Under the pieces are notes generated by a model. That model was given only the letters and a program-made list of their open reading frames with translations. It made no database searches and was not told the DNA's origin. 64,000 bases of DNA from a virus: the IMG/VR virus record IMGVR_UViG_3300045988_137301. The stretch is one strand, 5' to 3'. A program made the translations under genes and the position numbers. Shown one piece after another: positions 1,700 through 61,818 of the stretch; position 1 is the stretch's first letter, and each line of letters opens with the position of its first letter.

Positions 1700-1796
1700 T
1701 TGGCATTGCTGACTCCATTGTTAGAATTGAAATAGCTAAGCCTGGAATTGGACCCATTATTAGCGTTGCCGCCTACTAGCAGTGTTTTTTAGCCAA
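1700..1796 (-). repeat. Decayed AT-shifted copy of the Gly-rich 3' module of the tail-fiber gene, without a start codon
   Basis: Minus strand translates as KTLLVGGNANNGSNSRLSYFNSNNGVSNANSN, parallel to LRVGGSAFGSASGLGYFSSFTGVG of the adjacent tail fiber. Nucleotide alignment to 1905..1968 is recognisable. A TAA immediately precedes it. Confidence 0.45.
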
Positions 1797-1856
1797 CCAA
1801 CAGTATTATAAATAGCATCCTGTTATTAATTTAATATTTAAAATATTTATGTAAAA

Positions 1857-3929: not shown

Positions 3930-3930
3930 A

Positions 3931-4119
3931 TTATTCAATAATTAGTACCTCGTCACTCACAGTATGTTCATCTATTTTCTCTTCTAATTCTAATTGAAGA
4001 TCTTCTTTAGTGACATAATCTTCTAAAATTGAAGGGTCTACTCCCCCATAAAAGTTTCCAGTCATTTTTACTGGCTAAGTAGCTTTTTTAAACTATCCTT
4101 CTAGATAAATTATTCCCAT
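3931..4119 (-). CDS. Small hypothetical protein (62 aa) with 2 in-frame TAG
   Basis: ATG at 4119, TAA at 3931-3933, traced codon by codon: MGIIYLEG(Q)FKKAT(Q)PVKMTGNFYGGVDPSILEDYVTKEDLQLELEEKIDEHTVSDEVLIIE. Lies directly upstream of the tail fiber. Confidence 0.35.
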
Positions 4120-10100: not shown

Positions 10101-10819
10101 TAGTAACTATCGAAGTTTAGTCAGTAAATCAGTTTCTCTTGACTGCATTATATAATGAACAACATTCTAAGCAGCTATCTCATACTAAGAAATGAAGGAC
10201 TAATCAATATCCTAAATTATTTTGTCTAGCTAAGTCTTTACAGCTTTATCAGTAATATCTTTTCCATCTATGAACTACAAAATCGAGTTTGTAAGATGGT
10301 CCTTTAGAAACTTTACAATTCCTTCTGTAATTTTTAACTATTTCTCTCTTGTTATATTTGTGATAGTATCAGAGTCCTTGCAAGATATTTTAGGGAGTAT
10401 AGGAGTTCCTAGATATTCTCCCACCAGAGCATCAACATGTTTTTTCAATAGTGGAGTAAATTCTACAGATGTAGGAGAACCTATCCCAAAATTCTCTTCT
10501 AAATATCTAAACTATTCTGGGTCTCTTTTTCCATTGTAGTAATTATAAGCTTTCTACAATTCATACTTGTTATAAACAAGCTCCGCAATAGCCTCGTTTG
10601 TCTTGTCTATTAACTCTTTCTCTTTCATAACATAAATTATGTTGTTCTGGAGGAAGTTTAGTAGCGTTATAATATTTAACTCTCTATAGCTTCCTATTTC
10701 TTAATTCTTCCTTTATAAAGGGAAGAAATTCCTCATCTGGTAAGTCTGCTATTATTACTAGAGGCATTTCTGATCTGTCAAAATTAAAAGACACCTTATA
10801 TCCAACTGGATATAAATCC

Positions 10820-13186
10820 TCAATTTCTAATCCCCCTATATACTCCATCTTGTATAAGTCTTTCATATACCCGAGTATCACTTGTTTCAATTCTGTATGG
10901 GTCATTGTATTCTTCTCTCTATATATCAAATTCGGGAGGTTTTCTATCTGGAATAATTCCAAATCTTTTTATTCCTTTCTCATCATAATAGTAACCAAAA
11001 TCTCTAAACTATTCAACCTCTTTTCTTACAAATGATGGCTATCTTCCGGAAAGTTCCTAATCAGCTAGTTCAGTCATACCCATAGCTGCAATTATATCGA
11101 ATTTTCCTTTGTTCTCATCATTATATCCAGTTAGCTATTCTAACATCTCTTCAAACCATATAGTATGGCAATAATCTTCTACAAAAGCAGCCGTTAAGTT
11201 AGTATGCTATTCTATAACAGTTTTGGTAGCAGGAGTTCCATATTGTTTAGTGCTTCCATATTTTATATCCGTTAGGGTAGCCTTTGGTCTTTTCATGAAA
11301 TATCCTAAATATCCCTTTTCTTTTGCCCAGGTAACCATACTCATTCTAGTAGCTTCTATATTTATCTTACAATTATAATATCTAGCTAGGCACATAGCTA
11401 TCTTATATGCCTCTCTAATATCTCCTGGCCTATCCTTATATAGAGCTACATACTAAGGCTCATTAGTTCCAAATAACCTTTTCTTTATAGTTATACAAAA
11501 GTCAGAAGGGTTTCTAGTTTCCTTAGAAGTCTAGTTAGCACCAATATCTATTCCATCTATCCCTGCTACGTACAAATCATTCATTTCCTTGTAGACGGGC
11601 ATCTCGAACTCCTCTCCTCTTTCTTCTGCTTCCTGCCTTAGTTTCTCTACTTGCTCCTTGTATAAGTCCGACCATACAGGGTGCTCTAGAATTTTTACTT
11701 TCCCCTTATTATTTGGAATCCACTTAAATCCATCAATATTATCCTAAGTATGTTTATTGTTTTTATAGAAATAGTCTATATATCCAACCTCTATTCGTGG
11801 ACCTATTTTCTTCAACCTGATGTTAGCTAACTAATCTGCAATAAGTATTTTATTAAACTTATTTATTCCCTCTAAGTTGAAAGCCTCTTCAGCATTCCAG
11901 CAACGTTCTGCACATTTTTTTAGGTAGTCCTCTGGTACAGCTAATAGATTATCCCGCTCCTCCTATAAGAATTTTTTATACTCCACAGTATTACATACTC
12001 CTCTGTGGTCCATGAATTCTGGATTCAAAGATTGTATAAAGTATGGAATAAAGAATCCACTCTCTATAGTAGTTCCGTCCTGAGTCCAATTATGTCTAAA
12101 TGGGAGAACCTTATAAGCTCTAGGATTATAATAGATTTTTTTTAAACCTTCCAAGGGAGCGCCCATATCTCCACCAGTTCCTCCAAATAACATGGTCCCA
12201 CGAGGCATACCCTACACCTCACAAAGTTCTTGACCTTGTACTACAGCAGTGTCAAGTCCTGGCCAAGATCCTGCCTCATCATATATTAACAAATCAACAC
12301 GATCTCCTCTAATATTAGATGGCTTGGAACCATTTTTTCCAACTACCTCTGATTTGAATCCTATGTCTTCAAACTAACCATTTACTTTTATCTATTTTCC
12401 AGATTTTTTTCTCAAATCCTAGTCAATTAGGCGTAGTTTGAAAAATCCTCCGCCTGTACAGGTATTTAAAAACGTCAAAGCATTGTCAAATTTACTGAAC
12501 GTTCCCTTAAGGAACATATCATTAAAGCAGGTAATCATGACTCTACTTCTTCTAATAACAGAATACATACGAGCGGAAAGAGAGGCGTTTATTTCAGAGA
12601 AACCTATTGAACGAGCTTTCATTAAGGCCGCATGCTTATGTAGCACCCTAGCCATCTATAGATAATGAAAGAACATATAATGTGATGCAAAGAATATTGG
12701 GAAGTCATTATCAGTACCCTCACCAGAGGCTTTCTACTAGTCAATAGTAGGTAATTGATAGAAGTTTAAGAAGAAGTAATTATCTCCAGTAATGGTATAT
12801 CCATTAACTGTCATTCCATACTTACATCTTCTATATTGTTCCTTCCAGAACTCATTATATCTCTTACTATCTCTAAGGTAGGGACAATACTAACCAGTTC
12901 GCCTATATATTTCTCTGGTTTCTGTAAACCAATCTGGATCAAAATCAAGACCATGTGTTTCGTCAATAGGTCTATATCCTGTTATTTCGTAAGATAAGGT
13001 AGGATCAAATACTTCTATTTTTTCTCCCTTTTTAACATCCCAGTAATCTGCATTCTTGTCTCTCTCTTCTCTTATTTTCTAGACAAGCTGCCTCGCTTCC
13101 TAGGCGTCCTCTTTGTATTCTTTTTCCTTTACCTAATCTATTATACTCTATATTTCTTCAGGCAATATTTTCTTCTTCCTTGGCAT
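10820..13186 (-). CDS. terL: Large terminase subunit-like protein (~788 aa) with many in-frame TAG
   Basis: Frame traced from ATG ~13186 to TGA at 10820-10822. Contains a Walker-B-like RVDLLIYDEAGSW and a nuclease-domain-like DLYVAGIDGIDIGANQTS. Embeds listed ORFs 12419..12655, 11963..12208 and 11207..11395 in one frame, joined through TAG codons. Confidence 0.5.
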
Positions 13187-13188
13187 AA

Positions 13189-13749
13189 TCAAAAGTCTCC
13201 TGGGTCATAACCATCAACTGCTCCTGCTCTTACAGTTGACTGTTCTGTAAGTTCTTTCTTAACCTAATCTTCTAGAGTTACCAATTCCTCATGAACCTTA
13301 TGTAAGGTGGCCATTTCTTTCATTACCTTTTCTGCCTAGAATATTGGTTTTCCGTTATTATCCCGTTCATTCAGATCCACAATAGTATCAAAATAGTCAA
13401 TAAACTAGTCCGCAGCTCTCTTTGCGGCTTCAAGCAACTTGATTGATTTGTTGGAATCTTGCAATGCTCTATATTTTCTGCAAGCTTCTCTAAATATAGG
13501 ATCATTAAATTCTGACTCAGTTAGTCCAGAGTCACTAATTGCTTCGTCATGTCTCTCATGTTCTGAATATTGACTATACGGACTTTTCCAATCAATAGCT
13601 AGATAGATATATGTTAGTTCTCTAGTAGCCCTATCTTTTTCGATAGATTTATCTCTCTATATTAAGGCTTTAAATTCCTTTACTAACAAAAGCTCAGGTT
13701 CATTTATTTCTAGCTACTTATTTAAGGTATTGTAATTAAACACATTCAT
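13189..13749 (-). CDS. Hypothetical protein (~186 aa), candidate small terminase, with in-frame TAG
   Basis: ATG at 13749, TGA at 13189-13191, 2 nt upstream of the terL ATG. MNVFNYNTLNK(Q)LEINEPELLLVKEF... Confidence 0.35.
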
Positions 13750-20267: not shown

Positions 20268-21267
20268 CATTTTACACCGTTTTGCGGATTAGACTATCAC
20301 ATCCAGTCCTAAGACCAGTCCCTCTGTTTAGTCGTTCACGCTGCACGTAAATACTGCTTGCGCCTTGTCACTTGTTTGCTTCCAAGTCAATTAAGAGGGA
20401 TTCTACTTAAAGGTTATTTATTATTCTTTAAGCATCCAATAATTTGAAATAATAATTATTCCACAATTTATCAATGTTTCTTAATAGAGTATTTCTACAG
20501 GTTTTTAGTAATTTAGTTTTAACTAAATTATTATTCATTAAATATTCACAGCATTCAGAAATAGAACCAAACCTATTTAATTCTTCCATATTAGAATCAT
20601 ACTGTATAATATATTTCTGATTAGACTTTCCAAGTCCTGCATCTGAAATAATTTGTTTTATAACTGAATGTTTTACATTTAATACTTCTGCGACCTTTTT
20701 CTGATTTTTTAATTCTAGATATTTTCCTATAACTAAATCTTTTAACTCTTCTGTAATATCATATTTAGATTCAGTTATTTTTTGATTTCTAGAACCATAA
20801 GTATCAGTCTGACTGTGGCAATTAGGACATAGAAACCTTAAATTCTCTAACCTATTATCATTGTTTTCACCATTAATGTGATCAAGTTCTAATGATAATG
20901 TTCTTCCATTCCACTCTGTTATTCCACATATAGCACACTTGTAAGGAATTAAATTATCCTGTATAATTGTTCTCCTTAATATATTTCTATTATGTTTAGA
21001 ACCTTTACAAAACAATTTATCTTTATCTATTTTTTTAAGTTCATTACTAGTTGCTATTGCAGACTTTCCTCTAAAATTCTTTCCTGATAAATTAAGATCT
21101 GTCATTCTTTGTTTAACTTGCGAATATCCCCATGAATTTCCTTTCGTAGTATAACCAAGTTTAAATAAAACTTCTGAGGTGTTAAGACTTGACTTAACTA
21201 AGTCTATAAATTCCTCGTCTGTAAGTTTATAAATTTTATTTTCCATAATTATTAATTCAAATTCTTA
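20268..21267 (-). mobile_element. Group-I-like self-splicing intron (~1.0 kb) carrying an HNH homing endonuclease ORF
   Basis: Interrupts the tRNA anticodon loop. The 3' region contains a P7/R-S-like stretch gaacgactaaac...gatagtctaatccgc. The ORF fills most of the intron. Confidence 0.45.
20428..21246 (-). CDS. HNH homing endonuclease (intron-encoded)
   Basis: Listed ORF. CAICGITEWNG...ELDHINGENNDNRLENLRFLCPNCH is an HNH motif. Confidence 0.65.
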   Translation of the reverse strand: MENKIYKLTDEEFIDLVKSSLNTSEVLFKLGYTTKGNSWGYSQVKQRMTDLNLSGKNFRGKSAIATSNELKKIDKDKLFCKGSKHNRNILRRTIIQDNLIPYKCAICGITEWNGRTLSLELDHINGENNDNRLENLRFLCPNCHSQTDTYGSRNQKITESKYDITEELKDLVIGKYLELKNQKKVAEVLNVKHSVIKQIISDAGLGKSNQKYIIQYDSNMEELNRFGSISECCEYLMNNNLVKTKLLKTCRNTLLRNIDKLWNNYYFKLLDA

Positions 21268-23511: not shown

Positions 23512-24804
23512 GAAAGGGGAGAAATCCCTTTTCTTTTAAATACAAATAATCTTTGTAGAAATGAACATAAGAAAAAAGTTTAAAACTATAAAGTGTTTGT
23601 ACAACTGGGGAACAATCTACAACCCAGAGACTGATGAAAAGTTAAACTTTAAGACTAAGCGAGTTTATTGTATAGCTTCTTGGGCTTGGGTCATGACCTA
23701 TCAAAAGTCAGAAAAGGATATTCCGGAAATAATCAGGATTGTCTTTGTAGATTAACTCTAAGGTACTATGAGTTATAAATAAAGTGCCCATATGAACCCC
23801 ATCATTGGAACATTGGTTAACGGGGGAAAACAACATCACAACAAATCAAAGTTTTCTGTTTAGTTTTAGGATTATATCTGGCAGCTTGGAAAGACAAGCA
23901 AATTGTGTTACTAATAGATTTAATGCTCATCTAGGGATTTTGGAGGAGAAAGGAAAGAAATTGTCCACTAAAAAGACCCTCAATTTCCGGACTTTTTCAA
24001 ATTCTCAAAAAACCTGCCAGAGTAGGAGTTATATAGCTCATACTCTCTATGAAAATTATCTAGTGTTTAGTCTGTAAAAAGACACCAAAAAGAAGGGTTA
24101 CGCAGAAAAGCCCAACACCAAAAATAACTGCTACAAATCTCATGTGCATATTCGCAAACTTAAGCACTATAGGATTTAGGTTGAGCTGTAAGGATTGGTC
24201 ACTTATAGCAATATTATGAGTACTGCTGATATGTCAGTGACCGCACATATTACATATAAAATATGTTATACGATTATGTTAGAAGTTGCCAGGTCTAAGA
24301 AGCCTGATTAAAATCTCTAGATAGTAAGAGAGAACCTCATAAGGGTTCATTTTCCATCTCGAACCTATTCGCAAGTTTATAGACTAGCTATCTATAAATT
24401 TAGTGAACGTTGATAACGTCCTCAGCATGGAAAACTGAGAAATAATCTCCTATCTTATTCTAGATATAGATAGGATTTCCCTACTGGTATAATGGATTAC
24501 ATCTCCCTTTAAAGGAGAAGATTCTGGCTCAAGTCCAGAGTAGGGAACTATTTAGTTGGATGTAGTCATATTATTATAATTATTATTGGATCATAATGGG
24601 TATGCCCTGAGACTATGTAGTTGTTGTGAAACAACTCAAAGTATTGTGGCACAGGAAGGCCTAACTTCTTTTCACTATTTATAGACTAAAAGGCACAGCG
24701 GTGCCTTTACTCTCAAGATAAGAACAACCTTTACGTGGTTTGAGAGATAAGTAAGCTATTTTAGCTGAAACTAATAGTTCTAGTAACAATTAAAAATATT
24801 CATC

Positions 24805-25823: not shown

Positions 25824-26804
25824 ATGGAAGGCAATAGAAGAAATGTGAGAACAATATTGACCCATACAGGGAAAATATATGTAGACATAGACAACCAGCT
25901 TGAGTTTTTAACTGTAGGAGACTACGGAAAGGAAAATAATATCAAAGCTGACTTTCTAGGTTTAACTAAGGAAATACATGGAGTAGAGAATACAGCAGTA
26001 GACTTAAGTAAGAAATGGGTAGCAACTATTTCAACTCAGAAAGGTTGTCCTATGCATTGTAAATTCTGTGATGTTCCTAAGTTTGGATTCTATGGAAATG
26101 CTTCTATAGAAGACATGGAAAGACAAATCCGAACTATTATAGAAGGAGAGAGTATTAAAGAAACAGATAGGTTCAATGTACACTTTGCCAGAATGGGGGA
26201 ACCAACATGGAATGAGAATGTATTGGCATTCGGACTTGCTCTAAAGGGTATAGCCAAGTCTGCTGGATTAGTAGCTAAAACTATCCATCCGGTAGTCTCT
26301 ACCATGCTTCCAAAAGCAAATAGCAAACTTGGAAACTTCCTACAGATTTGGTGTAGTATCAAGAACGAATTCTACAATGGAGAAGCGGGTTTACAGCTTT
26401 CAATTAATTCTACAGACGATGGACAGAGAAGTGAACTGTTTAGCTCTAGAAGTTTGTCACTAACAGAAATTTCCAGACTAGCTGATAAGTTACCAATGCC
26501 AGTAGGCAGAAAGTATACTTTGAACTTCCCAGTAACAGCACAAACTATTCTTGATGCAAGAAAGTTGTCAGAATTATTTGATAAGGACAAATTTATTGTC
26601 AAAATCACTCCTATACATGAAACAACTTCCGCTATAGAAAGCGGACTCCAAATAACTGGATATACTGACTATGATGTTTACCGACATTTTGAACAACCCT
26701 TGTTAGAAGAAGGTTGGGATGTTATAGTGTTTGTTCCATCTAAGGAGGAAGATTCTGATAGAATAACTTGTGGAAATGCACTTATCGCGTTTAACAATTA
26801 TTAA
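25824..26804 (+). CDS. Radical SAM enzyme
   Basis: Listed ORF. The CPMHCKFC segment is a CxxxCxxC radical SAM cluster motif. Confidence 0.55.
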   Translation: MEGNRRNVRTILTHTGKIYVDIDNQLEFLTVGDYGKENNIKADFLGLTKEIHGVENTAVDLSKKWVATISTQKGCPMHCKFCDVPKFGFYGNASIEDMERQIRTIIEGESIKETDRFNVHFARMGEPTWNENVLAFGLALKGIAKSAGLVAKTIHPVVSTMLPKANSKLGNFLQIWCSIKNEFYNGEAGLQLSINSTDDGQRSELFSSRSLSLTEISRLADKLPMPVGRKYTLNFPVTAQTILDARKLSELFDKDKFIVKITPIHETTSAIESGLQITGYTDYDVYRHFEQPLLEEGWDVIVFVPSKEEDSDRITCGNALIAFNNY

Positions 26805-34585: not shown

Positions 34586-35182
34586 TTGCACCAAAACATT
34601 TGGTATTATGATTATTTTCATATATATTTGTATATGAATTACAATGATTATAATACACAGAAGTTAAGAGGTTTAAAGCGCAAATTAGAGCTGGTAAAAT
34701 CTCGTGGTGGTAAATGTGAACTATGTGGCTATGATAGAAACATAGCTGTTCTAGAATTTCACCATATCAATCCAGATGAGAAAGAGTTTCAGTTAGATAT
34801 GAGACATTTATCTAATACAAGTCTAGAAAGGCTTAAAGAGGAAGCAGATAAATGTCAACTTCTATGCGCTAATTGTCATAGAGAAGTACATAATCCTCAC
34901 TTGGGAATGGACGAAGTTGAAGATTTAGTTAATACTGAAGCCAAAGATAAGACGTCTTTTGAAAACATGACTGGGTCTGTATGTCCAGTATGCGGCAAAA
35001 GATTTCCTAAATCGAAGGGTAAGATATACTGTTCTAAGGAATGTAGAGATGCTGATAAACATTATCCCTCCCTAGAAGAAGTAAATGAGCAGTATGAAAT
35101 ACTTAAGAATTGGGAGAGAGTTGCACAGCATTTTGGATTAACTCGCAGAGTTATTCAAGGAATAAGAAAGAAAGACTCATAA
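34586..35182 (+). CDS. HNH homing endonuclease (inside the split tRNA)
   Basis: Listed ORF. CELCGYDRNIAVLEFHHINPDEKEF...LLCANCH is a His-Me finger motif. The real start may be an internal Met. Confidence 0.6.
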   Translation: MHQNIWYYDYFHIYLYMNYNDYNTQKLRGLKRKLELVKSRGGKCELCGYDRNIAVLEFHHINPDEKEFQLDMRHLSNTSLERLKEEADKCQLLCANCHREVHNPHLGMDEVEDLVNTEAKDKTSFENMTGSVCPVCGKRFPKSKGKIYCSKECRDADKHYPSLEEVNEQYEILKNWERVAQHFGLTRRVIQGIRKKDS

Positions 35183-35313: not shown

Positions 35314-35724
35314 ATGAATTATCAGTATTTTGGATTGTTCCTAGATGAACCAACTAGAAACAAACTTATGCAAGTTATCATTGGAAATCCCATCATTTCT
35401 AATCTGGTGTTCCAAAGAGGAAGTACTATTTATTTAGACCATTGCACTCTCCTCCATAAGAATCAACATGAAGAAAAGATGGCTAATAGCCTACAATATC
35501 GTATAGATGATAGTTTTCGATTAATTGTAAGTAAGATAGGGATTTCTGAGAAAGCAATAGCTTTTGGAGTAGAATTGGGAAACCAACATCTACCCTGTGC
35601 AAATGCCAAACCTCATATTACTATCTGTACAATCAATGGAGGTAAACCAGTGAATAGTAATGAGATTTGTAATTGGATTCCTATTCCAGAATTTAGCATT
35701 TATGGCACTCTTAAAAAAATATAA
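35314..35724 (+). CDS. 2H phosphoesterase superfamily protein (LigT/cyclic phosphodiesterase-like)
   Basis: Listed ORF with two H-x-T-x motifs, DHCTLLH and KPHITICT. Confidence 0.5.
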   Translation: MNYQYFGLFLDEPTRNKLMQVIIGNPIISNLVFQRGSTIYLDHCTLLHKNQHEEKMANSLQYRIDDSFRLIVSKIGISEKAIAFGVELGNQHLPCANAKPHITICTINGGKPVNSNEICNWIPIPEFSIYGTLKKI

Positions 35725-49438: not shown

Positions 49439-49939
49439 ATGAAGCATGTAATTCGAATTCTGGTACATAAGTTTTGGGTAGCATATTACTGTTTTAAATT
49501 AGGATTATATTGGCAAGGAATAATTCACGACCTATCTAAGTTTAGTTATATTGAATTTAGTAGATCCCTGAGGTATTGGAATGACTCTATGAGTCCTCTA
49601 GCTTATGAGAAGGAACTTAATGGATACTCTGAAACTTTTCTACATCACAGAGGCAGAAATCCACATCACTACGAGTATTGGGTACATAGTTTAGACGAGG
49701 GAGGTATTCCGGCCAAAATGCCAAAAAAGTATGCTCTAGAGTTAGTCTGCGACTATTTAGCTGCCGGAAAAACCTACAATAAGAATTTCACTTATAAGAG
49801 CGAATATAATTGGTGGATTAAATTTCTAAGCTCCCCCAGGGCTATACATCCCGAGACTAAAGATTTCATTACTAGATGTCTCAAACATTTAGCTACAGGA
49901 GGAGATATTAAGTATTTAACAAAAATTGATTATGAGTAA
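49439..49939 (+). CDS. Hypothetical protein (His-rich HHRGRNPHHYEYW motif)
   Basis: Listed ORF. Confidence 0.4.
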   Translation: MKHVIRILVHKFWVAYYCFKLGLYWQGIIHDLSKFSYIEFSRSLRYWNDSMSPLAYEKELNGYSETFLHHRGRNPHHYEYWVHSLDEGGIPAKMPKKYALELVCDYLAAGKTYNKNFTYKSEYNWWIKFLSSPRAIHPETKDFITRCLKHLATGGDIKYLTKIDYE

Positions 49940-50750
49940 AATAATAGGACAAGATAAGCTGATTAAAGAGGTTAACAGAATATTTCAGGTATTTATAAAT
50001 AGTAATTGCGAGATAAGACCACATTTTATTCTTACAGGTGAAAGTGGATCTGGTAAGAGCTTTACTATTAAACAGTTATGTGGTATGAATGAACTTAACT
50101 TTCTAGAAGTTAATGCAGCTCAAATAACTAAAGAGGGTATTTCTGGAAATAGTTTAAGCAAAATTCTATCTCCGCTTGCTAACTATAGTCACACACCTAT
50201 TGTAGTCTTCGTAGACGAGTTTGATAAACTTTTTATCAATGGAAACACTAATAGCCAACTGGCTAATGAATCTACTGCCAGTGTACAGAACGAGTTTCTC
50301 AAACTTTTAGAGTCTGATACTACTAGTGTTTTTGGCGATTATGGGAAGTACATATCAGTCCCTATTGATAATGTATTATTTGTGTTTGCCGGAGCATTCA
50401 ACAATGAGCCTCACATCACATTAGACAGACTAAGGGACTTTGGGGTTAAAACAGAGTTTCTTGGAAGAGTAGGATTAATCTACAATACCAAACCTCTTAC
50501 CTTAGAGGATTTGTATTCTATCTTGGAATGTTCAGACTTGTTGCAGAATTACCTTGACTTATTCTTTAATGTAAACAAAGAGCAAGTTATTAGTGATTTG
50601 AAAGGGTATCTAGAAAGCTCCTTTCGCAATAATACTCTTGGAGCAAGAACAATTAACACTCTTATCCACCAATACTTTATTAAAGGTGGAAAACTCGAAG
50701 TTGAAGAAGTAAAAGAAATAACTTTTAACAAAAAATTAGAATGGAAATAA
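49926..50750 (+). CDS. AAA+/P-loop ATPase
   Basis: Listed ORF. Walker A GESGSGKS and Walker B VFVDEFDK. Confidence 0.55.
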   Translation: MIMSKIIGQDKLIKEVNRIFQVFINSNCEIRPHFILTGESGSGKSFTIKQLCGMNELNFLEVNAAQITKEGISGNSLSKILSPLANYSHTPIVVFVDEFDKLFINGNTNSQLANESTASVQNEFLKLLESDTTSVFGDYGKYISVPIDNVLFVFAGAFNNEPHITLDRLRDFGVKTEFLGRVGLIYNTKPLTLEDLYSILECSDLLQNYLDLFFNVNKEQVISDLKGYLESSFRNNTLGARTINTLIHQYFIKGGKLEVEEVKEITFNKKLEWK

Positions 50751-52291
50751 TTAATGCTACAGATGGTTACAAATTGGGTCATCACAGAATGTACCCCGAA
50801 GGTACCGAACAAGTTTATAGTAATTGGACTCCTAGAAGTAATAAATACTTCCCAGAAGCAACTGAAGGTTCAGTAGTATTCGGCATTCAATACCTAATCA
50901 AGGAATATCTCATTAAACAGTTTGAGAAAAACTTCTTTAATCTGCCAAAGAAGGAAGCTGTGGAAATGTTCTATCGTAGAGTAAACAACTTTGTTGGTAT
51001 TGAATCCGTTGGGTACAGACATATTGAAGCTTTATATGACCTTGGGTATCTACCAATTCGCATAAAGGCTCTTCCTGAAGGTTCTGTGTGCCCTATTCGG
51101 GTTCCCATGATGACCATTACAAATACCCTACCTGAGTTCTTTTGGTTAACTAATTACCTAGAGACTATTATCAGCTGTACCTTGTGGATGCCATGTACAT
51201 CTGCTACCAGAGCTAGACTTTATAAGAAAGAGTTACATCGCCATGCTTGTAAAACCGGCTTTCCAACAGATGTAAATCTTGGTTTTTGTTGTCACGATTT
51301 CTCAATGCGAGGTATGGCAGGAATGGAAGCCGCAATCATATCTGGTATGGCGCATATGACTTCTTTTGTAGGAAGTGAGACTATTCCAGCTATTGCTGCT
51401 TTAGAAGAATATTATGGAGCTAATTCAGACAAGGAATTGATTGCTGCTACAGTTCCCGCGACAGAACACTCTGTAATGTGCGCTGGAGGGGAGAAAGACG
51501 AGCTAGGCACTTTCAAACGTCTAATTAATGATTTGTACCCTTCTGGGTTTGTTTCTATCGTATCTGATACTTGGGATTTCTGGAATGTAATTGAAAATTT
51601 CTTGCCCAAGTTAAAGAAAGACATTATGGCTCGTGATGGTAGAGTAGTAATCCGTCCTGATAGTGGGGATCCAGTGGATATAATTTGTGGGTTGAGAACT
51701 AATCCTCACTTCAATACTAGAATGAAAGAAGGTAAGTATTATTGCTGCTATGCTCCGTTTAATGACGATGCAGAGTATGTTGAAGTGTCTGAGGGTCAAT
51801 ATTATGGAGCATATTATATGCTTGGAAAAATCTTCGGATGGAACACCACGGTAAACGACTATCGCTATCCTAGTACCAAAGTTGGTTTACTCTATGGAGA
51901 TTCTATTACTCTGGAACGTCAAAAGCAAATTTATTTGAGATTAGAAAATGCTCATATGGCAGCTTGTAATCTTGTTCTCGGGATAGGATCATACTCATAT
52001 CAGTATGCAAGTAGAGATAGCCTTGGGTTTGCTATTAAGGCTACTGCTTGCGTAGTAAATGGTGAGTTGAAAGAAATCTTTAAACATCCTAAAACTGATG
52101 ATGGTACTAAGAACTCTTTAAAAGGTTTGATTGCTGTTTATGAAGGTCTGGATGGGAAATATACTGCCATTGATCAGGTCTCAATCGAAGAGGAAAAAGA
52201 TGGATACTTAGAGACTGTCTTTGAAGATGGTATCTTAAAGAAAGAATATTCTCTTGAAGAAATTAGACAAAGAATTGACAATGGACTTTAA
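50741..52291 (+). CDS. Nicotinamide phosphoribosyltransferase family protein (NAMPT-like; candidate Namat)
   Basis: Listed ORF. The N-terminus TDGYKLGHHRMYPEGTEQVYSNWTPRS and overall length match NAMPT family proteins. Confidence 0.7.
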   Translation: MEIINATDGYKLGHHRMYPEGTEQVYSNWTPRSNKYFPEATEGSVVFGIQYLIKEYLIKQFEKNFFNLPKKEAVEMFYRRVNNFVGIESVGYRHIEALYDLGYLPIRIKALPEGSVCPIRVPMMTITNTLPEFFWLTNYLETIISCTLWMPCTSATRARLYKKELHRHACKTGFPTDVNLGFCCHDFSMRGMAGMEAAIISGMAHMTSFVGSETIPAIAALEEYYGANSDKELIAATVPATEHSVMCAGGEKDELGTFKRLINDLYPSGFVSIVSDTWDFWNVIENFLPKLKKDIMARDGRVVIRPDSGDPVDIICGLRTNPHFNTRMKEGKYYCCYAPFNDDAEYVEVSEGQYYGAYYMLGKIFGWNTTVNDYRYPSTKVGLLYGDSITLERQKQIYLRLENAHMAACNLVLGIGSYSYQYASRDSLGFAIKATACVVNGELKEIFKHPKTDDGTKNSLKGLIAVYEGLDGKYTAIDQVSIEEEKDGYLETVFEDGILKKEYSLEEIRQRIDNGL

Positions 52292-52694
52292 TCATCCTTT
52301 TGGGAAAGAAGCTTGTAAGAAACGACTATTAGAAGAGTATTATAAATACGGAAAGCTGATAGTTGCATTCGATTATGACAATACCATTTACGATTATCAT
52401 CAAAATGGTGGGGATTATTCTGAGGTAATAGAGTTACTGAAAGAATGTGCAAGACTCGGATTCAAGTTAATTCTCTTTACATGTGAAGATGATCCGATTA
52501 CTTTGCAATGCAAAGTAGACCTATGCGAAAATTTACTAAAAACGGGTATTGATTTAAAAAGTTCTGTATTTCCAGAATCTGACAAGCCCTATTATAATAT
52601 TCTTTTGGATGATAGAGCTGGCTTGGAAGAAAGTTATGAAATTTTAAAATATGTAATAGATGAAATTAAATCTAATCAACCGAGAAAAGAGTGA
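52254..52694 (+). CDS. HAD-superfamily phosphatase-like protein
   Basis: Listed ORF. VAFDYDNT is the DxDxT motif I; ILLDD is a motif IV candidate. Confidence 0.4.
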   Translation: MKKLDKELTMDFNHPFGKEACKKRLLEEYYKYGKLIVAFDYDNTIYDYHQNGGDYSEVIELLKECARLGFKLILFTCEDDPITLQCKVDLCENLLKTGIDLKSSVFPESDKPYYNILLDDRAGLEESYEILKYVIDEIKSNQPRKE

Positions 52695-53487
52695 CATTGG
52701 TTATTCTATCTTTAGATTTCCAGACGGTGAAGTTCAAATGATTCTGGGAGAATTTAGTCGTAAGGAAGTGGTAGATATTGAATGTAGAATTACTAATGCT
52801 GAGGAATTGTTTGTTTTAATGCAAACGTGTGATATTCTTAATCGTCATGGAGTAATGTTCTCTATTTCTATTTACTATCTTATGAGTATGAGAATGGATA
52901 GAGTAATGGACTTTTCTCGACCATACACCCTAAAAATAGTGGTGGGGATTTTGGATAACCTAGGAGCGTTCTCGATAAGTGTTTTTTGTCCTCATTCCGA
53001 AATGTCCCTTGACTTGTTTAAAATGACTCCAGTTACCTTAATAAGACCAAACACGCTAGTATACTACGGAGCAAATCATTTTCGTAGTTATCAAATGATT
53101 CTACCAGACACAGGAGCCGTTAAAAGGTACAGATCCAATGGCGACGTTCCCAATAATATAATTATTGGAGAGAAGGTGCGTGATGTTGATACAGGAAAGA
53201 TAGTGTCTATTAAGATCAAAAATCCGGAAGCACTTACTGGGGAACCTCTTCTTATTCAGGATGATCTATGTGATGGAGGTGGAACATTCATTGGGCTAGC
53301 AGAGGCCGCAAAAGAAATTAACCCAGAGGCTGACATTAATATCTTTGTGTGTCATATGGTCAATCCAAAAGGTATCAAGAATCTTTCTGAGACCTTCAAT
53401 CATGTGTGGTTCACGAATTCTTATAAGGACTGGAAGTCTCATTGTGATCAGTTTCCTGATAATGTAACTCAAATTGATATTGTATGA
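52660..53487 (+). CDS. Ribose-phosphate pyrophosphokinase (Prs)-like protein (candidate Adps)
   Basis: Listed ORF. FPDGE N-terminal motif and the PRPP-binding loop LLIQDDLCDGGGT. Confidence 0.6.
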   Translation: MKLNLINREKSDIGYSIFRFPDGEVQMILGEFSRKEVVDIECRITNAEELFVLMQTCDILNRHGVMFSISIYYLMSMRMDRVMDFSRPYTLKIVVGILDNLGAFSISVFCPHSEMSLDLFKMTPVTLIRPNTLVYYGANHFRSYQMILPDTGAVKRYRSNGDVPNNIIIGEKVRDVDTGKIVSIKIKNPEALTGEPLLIQDDLCDGGGTFIGLAEAAKEINPEADINIFVCHMVNPKGIKNLSETFNHVWFTNSYKDWKSHCDQFPDNVTQIDIV

Positions 53488-54079
53488 GAGAAATACGAAA
53501 TTTGGAAGCTGCTGAGAGACTAGTTAAAAAATATAGGAGTATTACCAGGGAGGAACTCGCAAAGGTCTATGCTTCCATATGCGAAGAAGAATCTAATGAA
53601 ATGCGAGATGTTCTTCAAGAAATCACAGGGTTCGGGAGTCTTTCAAAATGTTCCTTGTGTACAGCTATTGTAGAGAACAATATACAGTATAGTGCTTGTC
53701 TATACTGTATCTATCGGAATTTTAGAGATTTTGCAGCCCCTTGTGTTTATCATGAAACATATGAGGCTATAGAAAAGTCTAAAAACCTTGATGAACTGAT
53801 GGAGGCTATCAGAAATAGAGCAGATTACCTAGAGGAACTAATTGAGAAAGTTAAGAATGATAATTGAGGGACCATTTTATAGACTAACTCCGATCAATGA
53901 TTCCTCTCCTAGATTTGATTTGGAACTCTTATATGATATAGGAGGGAAAAATCCTAGGAGAGAATTTAAGATAGAGGGATATGGTTATACTTTAGAGACA
54001 GCATTAAAGAAGTGTTGTAACTATGCTGTCAACAAGAAATTTGGGAAGGATGAAGTCATAACATTGAAAAGATACTTAA

Positions 54080-58850: not shown

Positions 58851-59456
58851 GTGAGAAATCTTGAACTAGAACAACAACTTACTTTCTGTGAGAAGTACAG
58901 AATTTCTCCTAACGAGTTGTTGTTGTTGGAAATTCTTCTTGTTGCCCAAGAAGGAGATGGATTGGAAATTGTTAACAGGTACTTCTCTTCAAGAGTTGAT
59001 GCCCGTGGAAAAGTTACAGAACTATTATTTGGACTTCAAAATGCTGGGATAATAAATAAAACTTATAAAATCCCTGAAAAGGGATGTATATTTAATCCCC
59101 TAGATGTCCCCTTAAATAAAAATATCGTAAAAGATTTCTATAAATGTTCTTTTGAGATCGGAAAAGAATTATGGGAAACTTATCCCCTATTTGGGATAGT
59201 TAACAATGCCCAAGTTGGAATCAGAAGTATATCCAAGAAATTTGATAGTTTAGAGGATTTTTATAGATTTTACGGTAAAACAATACGGTGGAAACCAGAT
59301 ATTCATAATCATATTATTGACTTGGTAAAGTGGGCAAAGGAACATAATCTATTATGTACTACCTTAGCTAACTTTGTGGTAGATCATAGATGGGAAGAAT
59401 TAGAGGCCCTGAGAGGAGAAGGAGGAATAAACTATGATACTATGAAACTATTATGA
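58851..59456 (+). CDS. Hypothetical protein (replication module)
   Basis: Listed ORF. Confidence 0.4.
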   Translation: MRNLELEQQLTFCEKYRISPNELLLLEILLVAQEGDGLEIVNRYFSSRVDARGKVTELLFGLQNAGIINKTYKIPEKGCIFNPLDVPLNKNIVKDFYKCSFEIGKELWETYPLFGIVNNAQVGIRSISKKFDSLEDFYRFYGKTIRWKPDIHNHIIDLVKWAKEHNLLCTTLANFVVDHRWEELEALRGEGGINYDTMKLL

Positions 59457-60541
59457 TTTCGAACAAACTATTGAACGAAATTGATAGGGGTAGATTAGGA
59501 CTAAATCATGGTATTCCGATGAAACTGCCAAAACTAGAATCTATAATAGATGGAGTAACAAGGGAAACCTATACACTTATTCTTTCAAATTCTGGGGCAG
59601 GTAAAACTTCCTTCGCATTATATGCGTATGTATATAGACCTCTAATGGAGCATCTAAATGATGATGACTTCAAAGTATTGTACTTTAGCCTTGAAATGGG
59701 AGAGGTAGCCTTATATATTAAGTTGTTGTCTATATATATATTTGAAACGTATGGAATCCAATTATCCTTCAAAAAGATATTATCTAGAGAGAAGGAATAT
59801 ATCTTGTCTGATGAACACTATGATCTTGTCAAACAATGTATGCCTTGGGTAGACAAGATTAGCGAGAAATTGGAAATATATGATAAGAAAGTAACACCTA
59901 ATAAGGTGTATGCTATTCTGAAAACTAGGTTAGAGGAAATGGGAACCTTTTCTGAAAATGAAACCCGCCTCGTCTATACTCCAAATAATCCTAATCTTGT
60001 TTATAACGTGGTTGTAGATCACATTGGTCTTGTTGGCACAAAGCCTGACATTGATTTATTATCCAGCTATCTTCTCTTTTTTAGAGATAAGTGCTTTATT
60101 AGCCCTGTAGTAATACAGCAAGCTAATAGAGAACAAGGAAACATTGAAAGGTTTAAGCAAGGAAAAAGTGCATTCACTATTCATGATGCTAAGGATTCTG
60201 GGAATACGGTGCAAGATTGTAATATAATGATTGCACTTTATAATCCTCATAGAGATGGGCTAAAGACTTATAAGCATTATAACATCGAATATCTAGGTTC
60301 CTATTTCAGGAGTATTATGGTCTTGAAGAACAGGTATGGTGATTGTGATGTGGAGATCGGAGTGAACTTCTTTGGATGGGTAAATATGTTTTATGAACTG
60401 CCAAAACCGGAAGAAATTTATGATTATGAAAGATATACAAGTCCAAATTATATATTAAAAGATAGTAGTTCTGTAGTAGAACAGGAGCTAGATAAATGCG
60501 AAGAAATAGATAACGAAGAAAATCTTAATTTTGTATTATAA
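59453..60541 (+). CDS. DnaB-like / RecA-fold replicative helicase
   Basis: Listed ORF. Walker A SNSGAGKTSFAL; Walker-B-like VVVDHIGL. Confidence 0.55.
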   Translation: MISNKLLNEIDRGRLGLNHGIPMKLPKLESIIDGVTRETYTLILSNSGAGKTSFALYAYVYRPLMEHLNDDDFKVLYFSLEMGEVALYIKLLSIYIFETYGIQLSFKKILSREKEYILSDEHYDLVKQCMPWVDKISEKLEIYDKKVTPNKVYAILKTRLEEMGTFSENETRLVYTPNNPNLVYNVVVDHIGLVGTKPDIDLLSSYLLFFRDKCFISPVVIQQANREQGNIERFKQGKSAFTIHDAKDSGNTVQDCNIMIALYNPHRDGLKTYKHYNIEYLGSYFRSIMVLKNRYGDCDVEIGVNFFGWVNMFYELPKPEEIYDYERYTSPNYILKDSSSVVEQELDKCEEIDNEENLNFVL

Positions 60542-60975: not shown

Positions 60976-61818
60976 ATGGCCAAAATTATTGGGACTACTC
61001 CCAATAGAATGGCTAGTAAAAGAGGAAAATTAGGATTAAAACCTAACAAAGGAAAAAGAGATACGTATAAACTTACAGAAGAGGAAATAAGCGTTTTATG
61101 TGGAACACTACTTGGTGATTCTACTATAAGATATGTACATAATCAGTGTAAATATCCAAACCTTACATTTTCTCATACAGTCAAGCAAAAGCAATATTTT
61201 ATGTGGAAGACAAATAAGCTAACTAATCTTATGTCTTCCAGCAATATGTATAAGACTAATTATGTTAATACTAATGGAGAAGTAGTTTATAAATTAGTAT
61301 ATACTGGAAGCAATATGGCTTGTCTAGTAGATATTAGAACTATTTTTTACGACGGAAACGGAGTAAAGCATATTCCAATTGATTACTTAATTCAGCACTT
61401 TAATGATGTAAGTTTATATTGTTTATTTATGGATGATGGTAGTTATGATATATCTTCTAATAGTTATATAATTAATACTCAATGTTTTAGTGAAGAAGAA
61501 TTAAAACAATTTGTGGTATTACTATATAATAAATTTAATTTAGAGTTTAGTATTAAAACTGACCATTGCTTATATTTAAAACATGTAAGTAATTCTCTAT
61601 TTCAAAAACTCTTGGAAAGAATAAATGAATGTCCTGATATGATATATAAATTAGGAAAGTCGTCAGAAAACTCCGTTAAACAGGGAAACTCCCAAGAGGA
61701 CAATCCTGTGCTAAACCCTCAAGAAATTGAGGAAGATGCCAAACGACTAGAAGTGATGCCTAACGAGAGAGACGGGGCTATAAAATCTTCCACGAAAGCG
61801 GGGCACTACTCAAAGTAA
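60976..61818 (+). CDS. LAGLIDADG-family homing endonuclease (two motifs)
   Basis: Listed ORF. LCGTLLGDSTI and YCLFMDDGSYD resemble the paired LAGLIDADG motifs. Confidence 0.45.
   Translation: MAKIIGTTPNRMASKRGKLGLKPNKGKRDTYKLTEEEISVLCGTLLGDSTIRYVHNQCKYPNLTFSHTVKQKQYFMWKTNKLTNLMSSSNMYKTNYVNTNGEVVYKLVYTGSNMACLVDIRTIFYDGNGVKHIPIDYLIQHFNDVSLYCLFMDDGSYDISSNSYIINTQCFSEEELKQFVVLLYNKFNLEFSIKTDHCLYLKHVSNSLFQKLLERINECPDMIYKLGKSSENSVKQGNSQEDNPVLNPQEIEEDAKRLEVMPNERDGAIKSSTKAGHYSK

Follow-up and report, generated by a model that had tools for sequence, protein, structure and literature searches.

A capless HAD phosphatase gene in the NARP1-type operon with which a crAss-like phage would reconstitute NAD+: a probable counterpart of the Macro-domain phosphatase of NARP1-AP

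The window, i.e. the whole 64,000-nt stretch analysed here, is part of the genome of a crAss-like phage from the gut. At 50741-53487 its + strand carries exactly three ORFs, co-oriented and overlapping, which bears out the three adjacent co-oriented genes reported in an earlier note on this DNA. These genes and the motifs discussed below are the following:

50741..52291, + strand: Namat, NAMPT-family protein of 516 aa, ATG start (ORF listing, Pfam, PDB match)
50843..50848, + strand: putative stacking pair K35-Y36 of the Namat selectivity-clamp loop, SCL (alignment with SpbetaL1 Namat)
51986..52018, + strand: Namat selectivity-clamp helix motif, SCH, GSYSYQYASRD, residues 416-426 (consensus match)
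52254..52694, + strand: capless (C0) HAD-superfamily phosphatase of 146 aa, TTG start, proposed NARP1-associated phosphatase (motifs, PDB profile, phrog_1238, gene context)
52371..52385, + strand: HAD motif I DYDNT, with nucleophile Asp40 and general acid/base Asp42 (alignments, translation check)
52660..53487, + strand: Adps, PRPS-like ADP-ribose pyrophosphokinase of 275 aa, ATG start (phrog_619, conserved residues)
53260..53289, + strand: Adps PP-loop region DDLCDGGGTF (equivalent of ICP1 Adps D212-F221)

Namat and Adps are separated just by the 146-aa HAD gene, which overlaps the former by 38 nt and the latter by 35 nt. The neighbouring ORFs overlap the ends of the trio as well—the upstream one ends 10 nt into the Namat gene, and the next one downstream begins 4 nt ahead of the Adps stop—so that the packing is operon-like; no terminator-like site was found on the + strand between Namat and Adps. 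As the same trio recurs in most of the related loci examined, this arrangement is not due to chance. The TTG start of the HAD gene is supported by the N-terminus that it specifies (MKKLDKELT...), which is kept in the homologues.

The 516-aa protein had been placed by the earlier note in the nicotinamide phosphoribosyltransferase family, in agreement with its matches to Pfam NAPRTase (E 6e-32) and NAMPT_N (E 1e-9) and to phrog_448 (7e-181). Its best PDB match is the Namat of SpbetaL1 (9W5X/9W5W, 488 bits), while human, rat and mouse NAMPT reach about 220 bits and align across the N-terminal half only. Its identity amounts to 42-52% with the Namats encoded in NARP1 operons that are verified or typical, namely those of Gary, ICP1 and BPS13, and to 33% with the KVP40-type NARP2 NAMPT of phage nt-1. 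Besides, a consensus found only in Namats was established for the SCH, GS-X-phi1-X-phi2-X-phi3-TRD with aromatic residues at X (PMC12774641), and GSYSYQYASRD fits it with two deviations only, an Ala at phi3 and a Ser that replaces Thr. This pattern is common to the Namats of Gary, VPT02, ICP1 and BPS13, whereas the nt-1 NAMPT has GGGLLQQLDRD at the same place; the SCL is also longer in the window Namat than in this NAMPT. In Namats the SCL contributes one more residue that stacks on adenine (Arg, or Lys/Tyr and then the stacking residue); by alignment only, K35-Y36 takes the position of SpbetaL1 R40-V41, K35 being aligned with Arg40. The NAMPT-like catalytic core is kept: D8, Y10, F187, R190, H243 and R305 correspond to SpbetaL1 D13, Y15, F189, R192, the catalytic His and R306, the exception being the position of the nicotinamide-binding Asp215, occupied by Glu213, a conservative change. 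Judged by these sequence features, the 516-aa protein is a Namat and not a plain NAMPT.

The 275-aa protein, announced as a ribose-phosphate pyrophosphokinase homolog with FPDGE and DDLCDGGGT motifs (found at residues 20-24 and 201-209), indeed matches phrog_619 'ribose-phosphate pyrophosphokinase' (2e-55, 189 bits); this group also takes in the biochemically verified Adps of ICP1 (285 bits) and of Gary (278 bits). It stays under the cutoff of the NCBIfam PRPS model TIGR01251 (62.6 bits for 113), where the match stops at position 282 of the 309 in the profile, and far under those of all equivalog models. It gave no match to Pfam Pribosyltran_N or Pribosyl_synth, and among solved PRPS the best match reaches no more than 37 bits. 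Its length is like that of ICP1 Adps (280 aa; PRPS about 315 aa), which indicates that the C-terminal helices of PRPS (alpha11-alpha12, regulatory elements) are missing.

The residues F18, R87, H121, D161 and K185 of ICP1 Adps are conserved as F20, R78, H112, D150 and K172, and its D212, D213, C215, D216 and F221 as D201, D202, C204, D205 and F210. In an alignment including ICP1 Adps, K172, R78, H112, D150, D201 and D202 are invariant; the catalytic Lys of the beta-hairpin (ICP1 K185) and the acceptor residues of this two-domain fold are also those of PRPS, hence necessary for an Adps and not discriminating. The PP loop, i.e. the donor-ATP loop remodelled in Adps (C215-S220 in ICP1) and conserved among its homologues, reads DDLCDGGGTF in the window, DDICDGAASF in ICP1 and DDMIDTGGT in E. 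coli PRPS: the window loop agrees with Adps in its Cys, Asp, Gly and Phe, but its GGT resembles the DTGGT of PRPS. The aromatic residues F18, F92 and F223 that contact adenine in ICP1 correspond to F20, Met83 and Gly212, positions that vary among other NARP1 Adps as well. By family grouping, the 275-aa protein belongs with the ICP1 and Gary enzymes to the phage Adps, at an identity of only 24-28% to the characterised ones.

Altogether, these sequence comparisons make it highly probable that Adps and Namat constitute a NARP1 core, i.e. a system already known. Like the NARP1 operons of Bas63, SpbetaL1 and ICP1 (Osterman et al., bioRxiv 10.1101/2024.02.11.579819), it has both enzymes adjacent and co-oriented, a Namat in which the clamp motif goes along with the catalytic His, Arg and Phe, and an Adps with the catalytic Lys, the acceptor Asp residues and a Cys-containing PP loop. 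The predicted chemistry is also the same: Adps would use ATP to pyrophosphorylate ADP-ribose (ADPR), the product of SIR2/TIR/SEFIR-type NADases, and Namat would combine the resulting ADPR-PP with nicotinamide to give NAD+. The window operon differs by its order—Namat first, then Adps, with a third gene in between—, by its lineage, a crAss-like phage of Bacteroidota, and by its Namat, which has the Glu at the Asp215 position and an insertion of 30-40 aa after residue 317. An NMNAT, Macro or Nudix Pfam match was found in none of the 48 window ORFs scanned, nor was a match to a cytidylyltransferase-type or NadR-type NMNAT. The NARP1-type pair proposed in the earlier note thus stands on the clamp motif, the closeness to SpbetaL1, the grouping of Adps and the lack of an NMNAT among these ORFs; the comparison with characterised enzymes that it recommended indeed groups the window proteins with SpbetaL1 Namat and ICP1/Gary Adps. 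Homology suggests that the trio would have an anti-defence activity.

The intervening gene is of another kind. Motifs I (DxDxT/V), II (S/T), III (K) and IV (DD) of the HAD superfamily and the Rossmannoid fold are all present in its product, and alignments show D40-x-D42-x-T44, T76, K111 and D119-D120 invariant across divergent homologues. Since the four motifs are invariant, the D+2 acid/base Asp included, the 146-aa protein is by its motifs an active-type phosphatase, a capless HAD with a BT_0820-like fold: the family profile matches PDB 2obb (BT_0820) with E 2.6e-5. It is nevertheless only 24% identical to the BT_0820 family of capless HADs (PDB 2obb; NCBIfam NF046079), and its NF046079 score of 15 bits is far under the cutoff of 165. 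As no substrate is known for BT_0820, the nearest solved relative, it is uninformative about the function of the window HAD. In PHROG the protein falls into phrog_1238 (4e-19), misnamed 'phosphoheptose isomerase'.

We agree with the earlier note that this HAD lies outside the described two-gene pathway, Adps and Namat being the full NARP1 pair; its association with them is nonetheless wide. In IMG/VR, 23 of the 34 viral clusters (60% identity) have it co-oriented with both Adps and Namat within 6 kb, and in the GTDB species-representative genomes it sits in a NARP1 operon at 63 of 80 loci. GenBank phages of four lineages (BPS13, VPT02, PhAER-3, cr126_1) carry it inside or beside Adps/Namat. 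The family is found in crAss-like phages and Lak megaphages, in phages of Bacillus and in bacteria of dozens of species; among the phages of Bacillus (54 records) and of Bacteroidota, the combination of HAD and NARP1 is the dominant one. As the linkage to Adps and Namat persists across phyla despite five gene orders, the HAD is very probably a functional part of the NARP1 module, as far as gene context tells, and not a hitch-hiker. Our search of the literature on HAD phosphatases in NARP1 operons returned no paper describing one: the pathway of Adps and Namat is already known, its HAD phosphatase gene is so far undescribed.

A phosphatase of another fold has recently been assigned to such operons. 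NARP1-AP, verified in Vibrio phage Gary, consists of Adps, Namat and Adpp, a Macro-domain (Poa1p-like) phosphatase that converts ADPR-1''P to ADPR and overcomes aRES (bioRxiv 10.64898/2026.01.28.702374). The Vibrio phage VPT02 offers a direct comparison with Gary: the DNAs are collinear, with 78-85% identity on both flanks, Adps and Namat are 82% and 87% identical in amino acids, and the difference is confined to the central cassette, which encodes the Macro Adpp in the former phage, Gary, and the HAD in the latter, VPT02. In KIT04, another carrier of the Macro gene, Adps shares 90.7% identity with the VPT02 protein. In VPT02-type phages the HAD thus fills the exact slot of Adpp, between orthologous flanks. 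Moreover, the HAD and the Macro phosphatase never occurred together in the loci examined. The Macro phosphatase was searched for by sequence profile only; the profile, made from 10 Adpp sequences in the literature, had no match in the window, in the 159 viral loci or at the 80 bacterial loci with the HAD. The hosts are complementary: all phages listed with Macro-NARP1 are those of Pseudomonadota, as opposed to Bacillus, Bacteroidota and many bacterial genomes for the HAD. The host phyla of the Bacillus and Bacteroidota phages with HAD-NARP1 have the highest aRES frequencies (10.4% and 4.7%).

As NARP1-AP is defined, the window operon is no member of it, for want of a Macro Pfam match among the window ORFs scanned and of an Adpp profile match in the window. 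Both are three-gene operons with a small phosphatase between or beside the core genes, but the folds are unrelated, a Rossmannoid HAD with an Asp nucleophile on one side, a Macro domain on the other. By analogy the window operon may still work like NARP1-AP, though its phosphatase is a HAD, the role proposed for it being alike, the conversion of ADPR-1''P to ADPR that defeats aRES.

Our main reading, to which we give a probability of about 0.6, is that the trio forms an extended NARP1 NAD+ reconstitution operon in which the HAD is an upstream feeder phosphatase, non-homologous equivalent of that of NARP1-AP. From its gene context, it would act before Adps and strip the phosphate off a phosphorylated ADPR that Adps cannot use, most likely the ADPR-1''-phosphate made by the RES-domain NAD+ phosphorylases (aRES). 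This step would let the phage counter a broader range of NAD+-depleting defences. We infer the ADPR-1''P role from the replacement of Adpp in the same slot and from the mutual exclusion with the Macro phosphatase; that this very compound is the substrate rests on the analogy and is proposed tentatively, at somewhat below even odds. The slot between Adps and Namat also houses RyDEP, in the RyDEP-NARP1 of mycobacteriophage DyoEdafos (PMC13232231), a glycosidase acting on the 2'/3'cADPR signals of Thoeris, neither a phosphatase nor homologous to the HAD. RyDEP, inserted as an accessory in a NARP1 operon, turns another NAD+-derived molecule into linear ADPR for Adps. Because RyDEP uses it too, sharing the slot means 'NARP1 accessory' and not identical chemistry. 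A role on the input side like that of Adpp, whose NARP1-AP pathway was published in 2026, was absent from the earlier note.

It is conceivable, though we find it rather unlikely, that the HAD is no simple substitute for Adpp and recognises a different phosphorylated product of NAD(P)+ breakdown, such as the 2'-phospho-ADPR left by NADP+ cleavage, or the product of an as yet undescribed NAD+-degrading defence that is common in Bacteroidota and Bacillota. Its wide distribution would then point to a side of the NAD+ arms race that has so far stayed hidden, and the HAD would be a third class of NARP1 'feeder' enzyme.

With the core being NARP1, the HAD might act on another NAD(P)-derived phosphate, turning the 2'-phospho-ADP-ribose left by NADases from NADP+ into ADPR, or NADP+ into NAD+; the NADP pool would in this manner be recruited for NAD+ recovery. 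The catalytic motifs point just to a phosphomonoesterase. The gene is found without NARP1 nearby in 8 of the 34 viral clusters and at 13 of the 80 bacterial loci, so that the substrate of the family may be an NAD-related phosphate ester of a more general kind. Among these are a cluster of 32 loci in which the gene lies between radical-SAM genes, and two loci where the HAD stands beside other NAD-synthesis genes, away from Adps and Namat (L108, with NAD synthase and NUDIX; L139, with NAD synthase and an isochorismatase-like/nicotinamidase-like gene), which fits a substrate not tied to Adps. On the other hand such a role has no precedent among phage NARP operons, and the replacement of Adpp in collinear Vibrio phages, with the mutual exclusion of HAD and Macro phosphatase, is more simply accounted for if both do the same job; we therefore hold this possibility for unlikely.

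A function unrelated to NAD+, in which the HAD, lodged in a permissive insertion site, would serve RNA repair as a polynucleotide 3'-phosphatase or else be a (d)NMP nucleotidase, appears very unlikely. The phosphatase of T4 Pnkp and deoxyribonucleotidase-like proteins do figure among its structural neighbours, and a neighbouring AAA ATPase gene indicates that the region takes insertions; the linkage to Adps and Namat nevertheless holds across phages of Bacteroidota, Bacillota and Pseudomonadota, and in the NARP1 operons of 63 of the 80 bacterial species genomes. Some annotators label homologues of the HAD 'polynucleotide kinase', which would go in the direction of RNA repair.

Hardly more can be said for the HAD as processing an intermediate or by-product (ADPR-PP, PRPP, NMN, AMP), limiting a toxic build-up or pulling the reaction forward. 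The gene does lie between both pathway genes, and Namat shows some PRPP-to-NMN activity in vitro (PMC12774641). However, hydrolysis of ADPR-PP would be futile, reversing the ATP-consuming step of Adps, and NMN is off the NARP1 route, so that we do not favour these two compounds, which the earlier note had put forward. Besides, the two-gene operon is experimentally sufficient, and most NARP1 operons do without a HAD: of the phage records that have an Adps homologue, about 1,500 in number, only 82 contain it.

Lastly, NARP2 (NAMPT and NMNAT; Vibrio phage KVP40) shares with the window operon a NAMPT-family enzyme and the purpose of restoring NAD+, but its NAMPT has no adenine clamp (the GGGLLQQLDRD of the nt-1/KVP40 type), uses PRPP and requires an NMNAT, in contrast to the clamp, the adjacent Adps and the 48 NMNAT-free ORFs found here when this alternative, raised by the earlier note, was looked for. 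Flanking genes that encode a plain PRPP synthetase and a NAMPT that forms NMN, for a metabolic or NARP2-like salvage with an NMNAT elsewhere and the HAD as a nucleotidase, are thereby most improbable: the database names ('ribose-phosphate pyrophosphokinase', 'nicotinamide phosphoribosyl transferase'), the lumping of Namat with NAMPT in PHROG 448 and the window covering part of the genome only would allow it, yet the SCH motif is that of Namats only and is missing from KVP40-type NAMPT, no NMNAT was seen among the window ORFs scanned, the Prs-like protein, under the PRPS cutoff and devoid of the PRPS C-terminus, groups with verified Adps, and the bit score of the 516-aa protein with Namat is twice that with NAMPT.

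The three co-oriented genes that the earlier note had taken for a probable NARP1-type pathway are recovered by the ORF listing at exactly 50741-53487, with the motifs quoted for them, in a standard-code block of the window. The window is a section of a crAss-like phage genome, and the closest GenBank relatives of the region are the uncultured crAss-like phages cr126_1, cr85_1 and cr111_1, the Bacteroides phages DAC15/DAC17 and a human-faecal phage contig. The genes concerned are the following:

49926-50750 (+), AAA ATPase gene (phrog_5534), between a DUF5662 gene and Namat
50741-52291 (+), predicted Namat, 516-aa ORF
52254-52694 (+), predicted HAD phosphatase, 146-aa ORF, TTG start
52660-53487 (+), predicted Adps, 275-aa ORF

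The trio genes overlap by 38 and 35 nt, and their flanking ORFs by 10 and 4 nt, so that they appear packed as a single transcription/translation unit. On the + strand, a consensus scan shows nothing terminator-like between them; its sigma-70 promoter and terminator counts stay at the shuffle level and are uninformative, the consensus used not including Bacteroidota promoters.

The 516-aa protein carries NAPRTase and NAMPT_N domains. Among all solved structures its top matches are 9W5X/9W5W (E 3e-145, 488 bits), which are structures of SpbetaL1 Namat (PMC12774641), versus about 220 bits for mammalian NAMPTs, with an alignment limited to residues 3-316. Namat is set apart from NAMPT by an adenine "selectivity clamp" in two parts: a helix motif GS-X-phi1-X-phi2-X-phi3-TRD (X being aromatic) not found in NAMPT, and a variable loop with a further stacking residue, which is either an Arg or the residue next to a Lys/Tyr (PMC12774641). 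The window protein has GSYSYQYASRD at residues 416-426 and K35-Y36 at the clamp-loop position. By alignment this pattern is common to the Namats of Gary (verified operon), ICP1, BPS13, VPT02 and PhAER-3, e.g. GSFTYQYVTRD; in the same alignment the NAMPT of Vibrio phage nt-1, which matches the KVP40 NARP2 enzyme at its N-terminus, displays GGGLLQQLDRD and a shorter loop. PHROG 448 is also matched by this NARP2-type nt-1 enzyme and was rejected as a discriminator; because it cannot separate Namat from NAMPT, the call was made on the clamp motif and the PDB scores, which identify the protein as a predicted Namat and not a plain NAMPT. The catalytic-core residues D8, Y10, F187, R190, H243 and R305 are kept. 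Glu213 (51377-51379), shared with cr126_1, stands in place of the nicotinamide-contacting Asp215 of SpbetaL1, which hydrogen-bonds nicotinamide and whose change to Ala lowers activity about 8-fold (PMC12774641); it may affect substrate handling in crAss-like Namats.

The 275-aa protein matches phrog_619 (E 2e-55). So do Adps from Gary's verified operon (278 bits) and Adps from ICP1 (285 bits), the latter with published structures and a published ADPR-PP-forming activity (PMC13586617). With the NCBIfam model for PRPS the 275-aa protein reaches 62.6 bits versus a cutoff of 113, it scores at most 37 bits against solved PRPS enzymes, and it has no match to the Pfam PRPS domain. Its length is close to that of ICP1 Adps (280 aa), so that it is devoid of the C-terminal alpha11-alpha12 region, which Adps have lost according to the ICP1 study (PMC13586617). 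In alignment A3, the ICP1 catalytic Lys185 corresponds to K172, the acceptor residues R87, H121, D161, D212 and D213 to R78, H112, D150, D201 and D202, and F18 to F20; the adenine-contact aromatics F92 and F223 are not kept. The PP loop starts with DDLCDG (DDICDG in Adps, DDMIDT in E. coli PRPS) and ends with GGT, which resembles PRPS, and so points both ways. The family scores and the length argue for an Adps-type PRPS homologue.

The clamp motif, the structure scores, the family grouping of Adps and its failure at the PRPS cutoff thus bear out the NARP1-type core (Adps forming ADPR-PP from ADPR and ATP, Namat forming NAD+ from ADPR-PP and nicotinamide). The NARP2-type alternative, a NAMPT with an NMNAT elsewhere, was also checked: of 48 window ORFs scanned with Pfam, none matches an NMNAT, a Macro or a Nudix family. 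It is thus very probable, at the sequence level and with a chemistry taken from homology, that the genes flanking HAD are a NARP1 pair. As the NARP1 core is already established in the literature, the locus adds one further case. In the phage family phrog_12872 (547 positions) the N-terminal 220 positions align with Adps and the remainder with Namat; some phages thus appear to encode an Adps-Namat fusion, an independent sign that both proteins act together.

For the 146-aa protein, sequence libraries gave no match above threshold. Alignments of 28-30 homologues, plus ten far more divergent ones, leave invariant D40-x-D42-x-T44 (motif I, in which D42 is the D+2 general acid/base usual in phosphatases), T76 (II), K111 (III) and D119-D120 (IV), as expected from an active-type, capless HAD phosphatase. 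Since these motifs are invariant, the PHROG name "phosphoheptose isomerase" (phrog_1238) is wrong; the protein has a HAD fold and no SIS fold. The hits of a BFVD fold search are all unnamed viral proteins of HAD-like type, and literature searches found nothing relevant on the substrate of BT_0820, the nearest solved relative. Two database homologues of the HAD protein, P0098 and P0101, bear an AAA Pfam match.

Of the 82 GenBank phage records with a HAD homologue, 54 are Bacillus phages and 15 are Lak megaphages; the others are crAss-like phages and one phage each of Vibrio and Aeromonas. The order of the three genes varies:

BPS13: Adps-Namat-HAD
VPT02: Adps-HAD-Namat
PhAER-3: Adps-HAD-Namat
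cr126_1: Namat-HAD-Adps

The ORFs of 159 IMG/VR loci with a HAD homologue were searched with Namat, Adps and HAD profiles, and redundancy was removed by clustering the HAD proteins at 60% identity, which gave 34 clusters, the VPT02 and PhAER-3 references included. Both partners lie co-oriented within 6 kb of HAD in 23 of these clusters; three, from Lak-type megaphages or from truncated contigs, have just an adjoining Adps, and eight have neither gene within 6 kb. A survey of GTDB with a single genome per bacterial species gave 80 HAD loci, spanning Bacteroidota, Bacillota and further phyla, with both partners in 63, a partial set in 4 and neither in 13. Five gene orders were seen in all, so that linkage has been retained across repeated rearrangement, which speaks for a functional tie and not for hitch-hiking. 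NARP1 operons, both of phages and of many bacterial genomes, repeatedly include a small HAD phosphatase as third component, and we consider it, with a probability of roughly 80%, an integral accessory of the operon.

The linkage is not exclusive, as the 8/34 viral clusters and 13/80 bacterial loci without NARP1 within 6 kb indicate. In a cluster of 32 loci (e.g. the IMG/VR locus L097, 5238-7333) HAD lies between two radical-SAM genes, and one locus adjoins a metallophosphoesterase; HAD adjoins NAD synthase, NUDIX and a second HAD in L108 (3140-7177), and is near NAD synthase and an isochorismatase-like gene in L139 (5890-9752). A weak radical-SAM ORF is present in the window itself (25824-26804). 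Lak megaphages of Prevotella have Adps immediately after the HAD gene (MK250017 56383-57635; MK250026; the IMG/VR locus L072); in Lak-B a NAMPT-family match lies about 220 kb away (MK250026, near 419 kb versus 195 kb), so that the module appears split.

What HAD might do is suggested by the accessories already known. The RES-domain defence proteins aRES cleave NAD+ into nicotinamide and ADPR-1''-phosphate, which NARP1 cannot use; about 15% of NARP1 phages add the Macro-domain Adpp, which turns ADPR-1''P into ADPR; for this system, NARP1-AP, the verified example is Vibrio phage Gary, with its Adps-Adpp-Namat operon (bioRxiv 10.64898/2026.01.28.702374). Another accessory, the glycosidase RyDEP, sits within a NARP1 operon and converts Thoeris cADPR signals to ADPR (PMC13232231). 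Recruitment of "feeder" enzymes by the NARP1 operon is therefore already known. VPT02 and Gary are collinear, with Adps 82% and Namat 87% identical and both flanks 78-85% identical in DNA; their sole difference is the middle cassette between Adps and Namat, Macro (PF01661) in Gary and HAD in VPT02, two proteins without similarity. KIT04, listed with a Macro gene in Table S1 (bioRxiv 10.64898/2026.01.28.702374), has an Adps 90.7% identical to that of VPT02. A profile of ten published Adpp sequences matched nothing in the window or in any of the HAD-bearing loci, viral (159) or bacterial (80); judged by such profile matches, HAD and Macro Adpp are mutually exclusive in the loci examined.

The phage hosts are complementary too: Macro-NARP1 is listed in Table S1 only for Pseudomonas, Vibrio, Acinetobacter, Aeromonas and Pseudoalteromonas phages (bioRxiv 10.64898/2026.01.28.702374), and HAD-NARP1 predominates in Bacillus and Bacteroidota phages. 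The phyla hosting most HAD-NARP1 phages are those with the top aRES frequency (Table S3: Bacillota 10.4%, Bacteroidota 4.7%, Pseudomonadota 3.3%), and aRES-listed strains include Bacteroides, Prevotella and Bacillus cereus (bioRxiv 10.64898/2026.01.28.702374). Same slot, mutual exclusion, complementary hosts and aRES frequency together lead us to prefer a mechanism in which HAD would convert ADPR-1''P to ADPR, Adps would convert ADPR to ADPR-PP, and Namat would form NAD+ from ADPR-PP. By analogy with Adpp, ADPR-1''P is a tentative substrate, somewhat less probable than all others taken together; the Adps-Namat slot also takes a non-phosphatase, RyDEP. HAD may instead act on another phosphate ester, 2'-phospho-ADPR from NADP+ or NADP+ itself, in line with the presence of the family beside other NAD genes. 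The proposal of the earlier note that HAD processes ADPR-PP or NMN is unlikely: the former would waste the ATP-dependent step, the latter would be off-pathway.

A 136-aa ORF of the window (35314-35724, +) matches tRNA_lig_CPD, the 2H-phosphoesterase domain of fungal tRNA ligase (E 6e-9), and has no PHROG match; it may serve as a CPDase in RNA repair or degrade cyclic nucleotide signals in the manner of Acb1. Enzymes of the 2H type also open ADP-ribose 1'',2''-cyclic phosphate to ADPR-1''P, so that a link of this ORF with the proposed HAD substrate can be imagined, speculatively.

NARP1-AP is defined by its Macro phosphatase; the window trio, which has none, is therefore outside the system as defined, but plausibly functions like it. 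Full-text literature searches and four NARP papers gave no description of a HAD component of NARP1, unpublished or unindexed reports being possible, and full-text searches on crAss-like phages with Adps/Namat enzymes gave none either. The survey in the aRES preprint targeted Macro Pfams specifically (bioRxiv 10.64898/2026.01.28.702374); the HAD family has no Pfam model, and this third component, misnamed in PHROGs, would escape Pfam-based surveys. The pathway itself is known; the third gene, widespread and misnamed, would together with the clean displacement between VPT02 and Gary extend the NAD+ arms race in abundant gut phages, in a way open to direct test. By one estimate, NAD+ depletion serves defence in >20% of bacteria (bioRxiv 10.64898/2026.01.28.702374), and this locus places predicted NAD+ reconstitution in crAss-like phages, as related loci do in Lak megaphages. 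Should HAD prove to dephosphorylate ADPR-1''P, phages would have found two answers to aRES, built on unrelated folds. The collinear VPT02/Gary pair offers a clean swap system. Tools for anti-defence annotation could take up the family, which also gives a clue to function in the uncharacterised clade of BT_0820-like HAD proteins.

Set against L007, L012 and further IMG/VR relatives whose flanks are just 66-76% identical in DNA, the operon (50736-53487) is mosaic: protein identity is 98% for Namat, 67-72% for HAD and only 45% for Adps, and 52940-53850 shows no DNA similarity to them. This suggests a recent Namat exchange and/or an allelic replacement of Adps. The AAA ATPase gene is a variable insertion beside the operon, missing in L007 and cr126_1, among others; since it is restricted to 17 close relatives and absent from cr126_1, both it and DUF5662 were rejected as members of the module.

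Elsewhere in the window, the minus-strand block 1-13204 has almost no ORF of at least 250 aa in the standard code; with TAG read as sense it gives ORFs of 694, 396, 534, 302, 746 and 794 aa, which looks like the late-gene stop-codon recoding known in some crAss-like phages. The suppressor-type tRNA listed first below belongs to an array of 16 tRNA genes (24478-45351); the other features are genes of homing-endonuclease type:

24478-24548 (+), suppressor-type tRNA, anticodon UUA
20428-21246, HNH-domain ORF
34586-35182, HNH-domain ORF
60976-61818, homing-endonuclease-type gene (LAGLIDADG), directly after a DnaB-like helicase gene (59453-60541)
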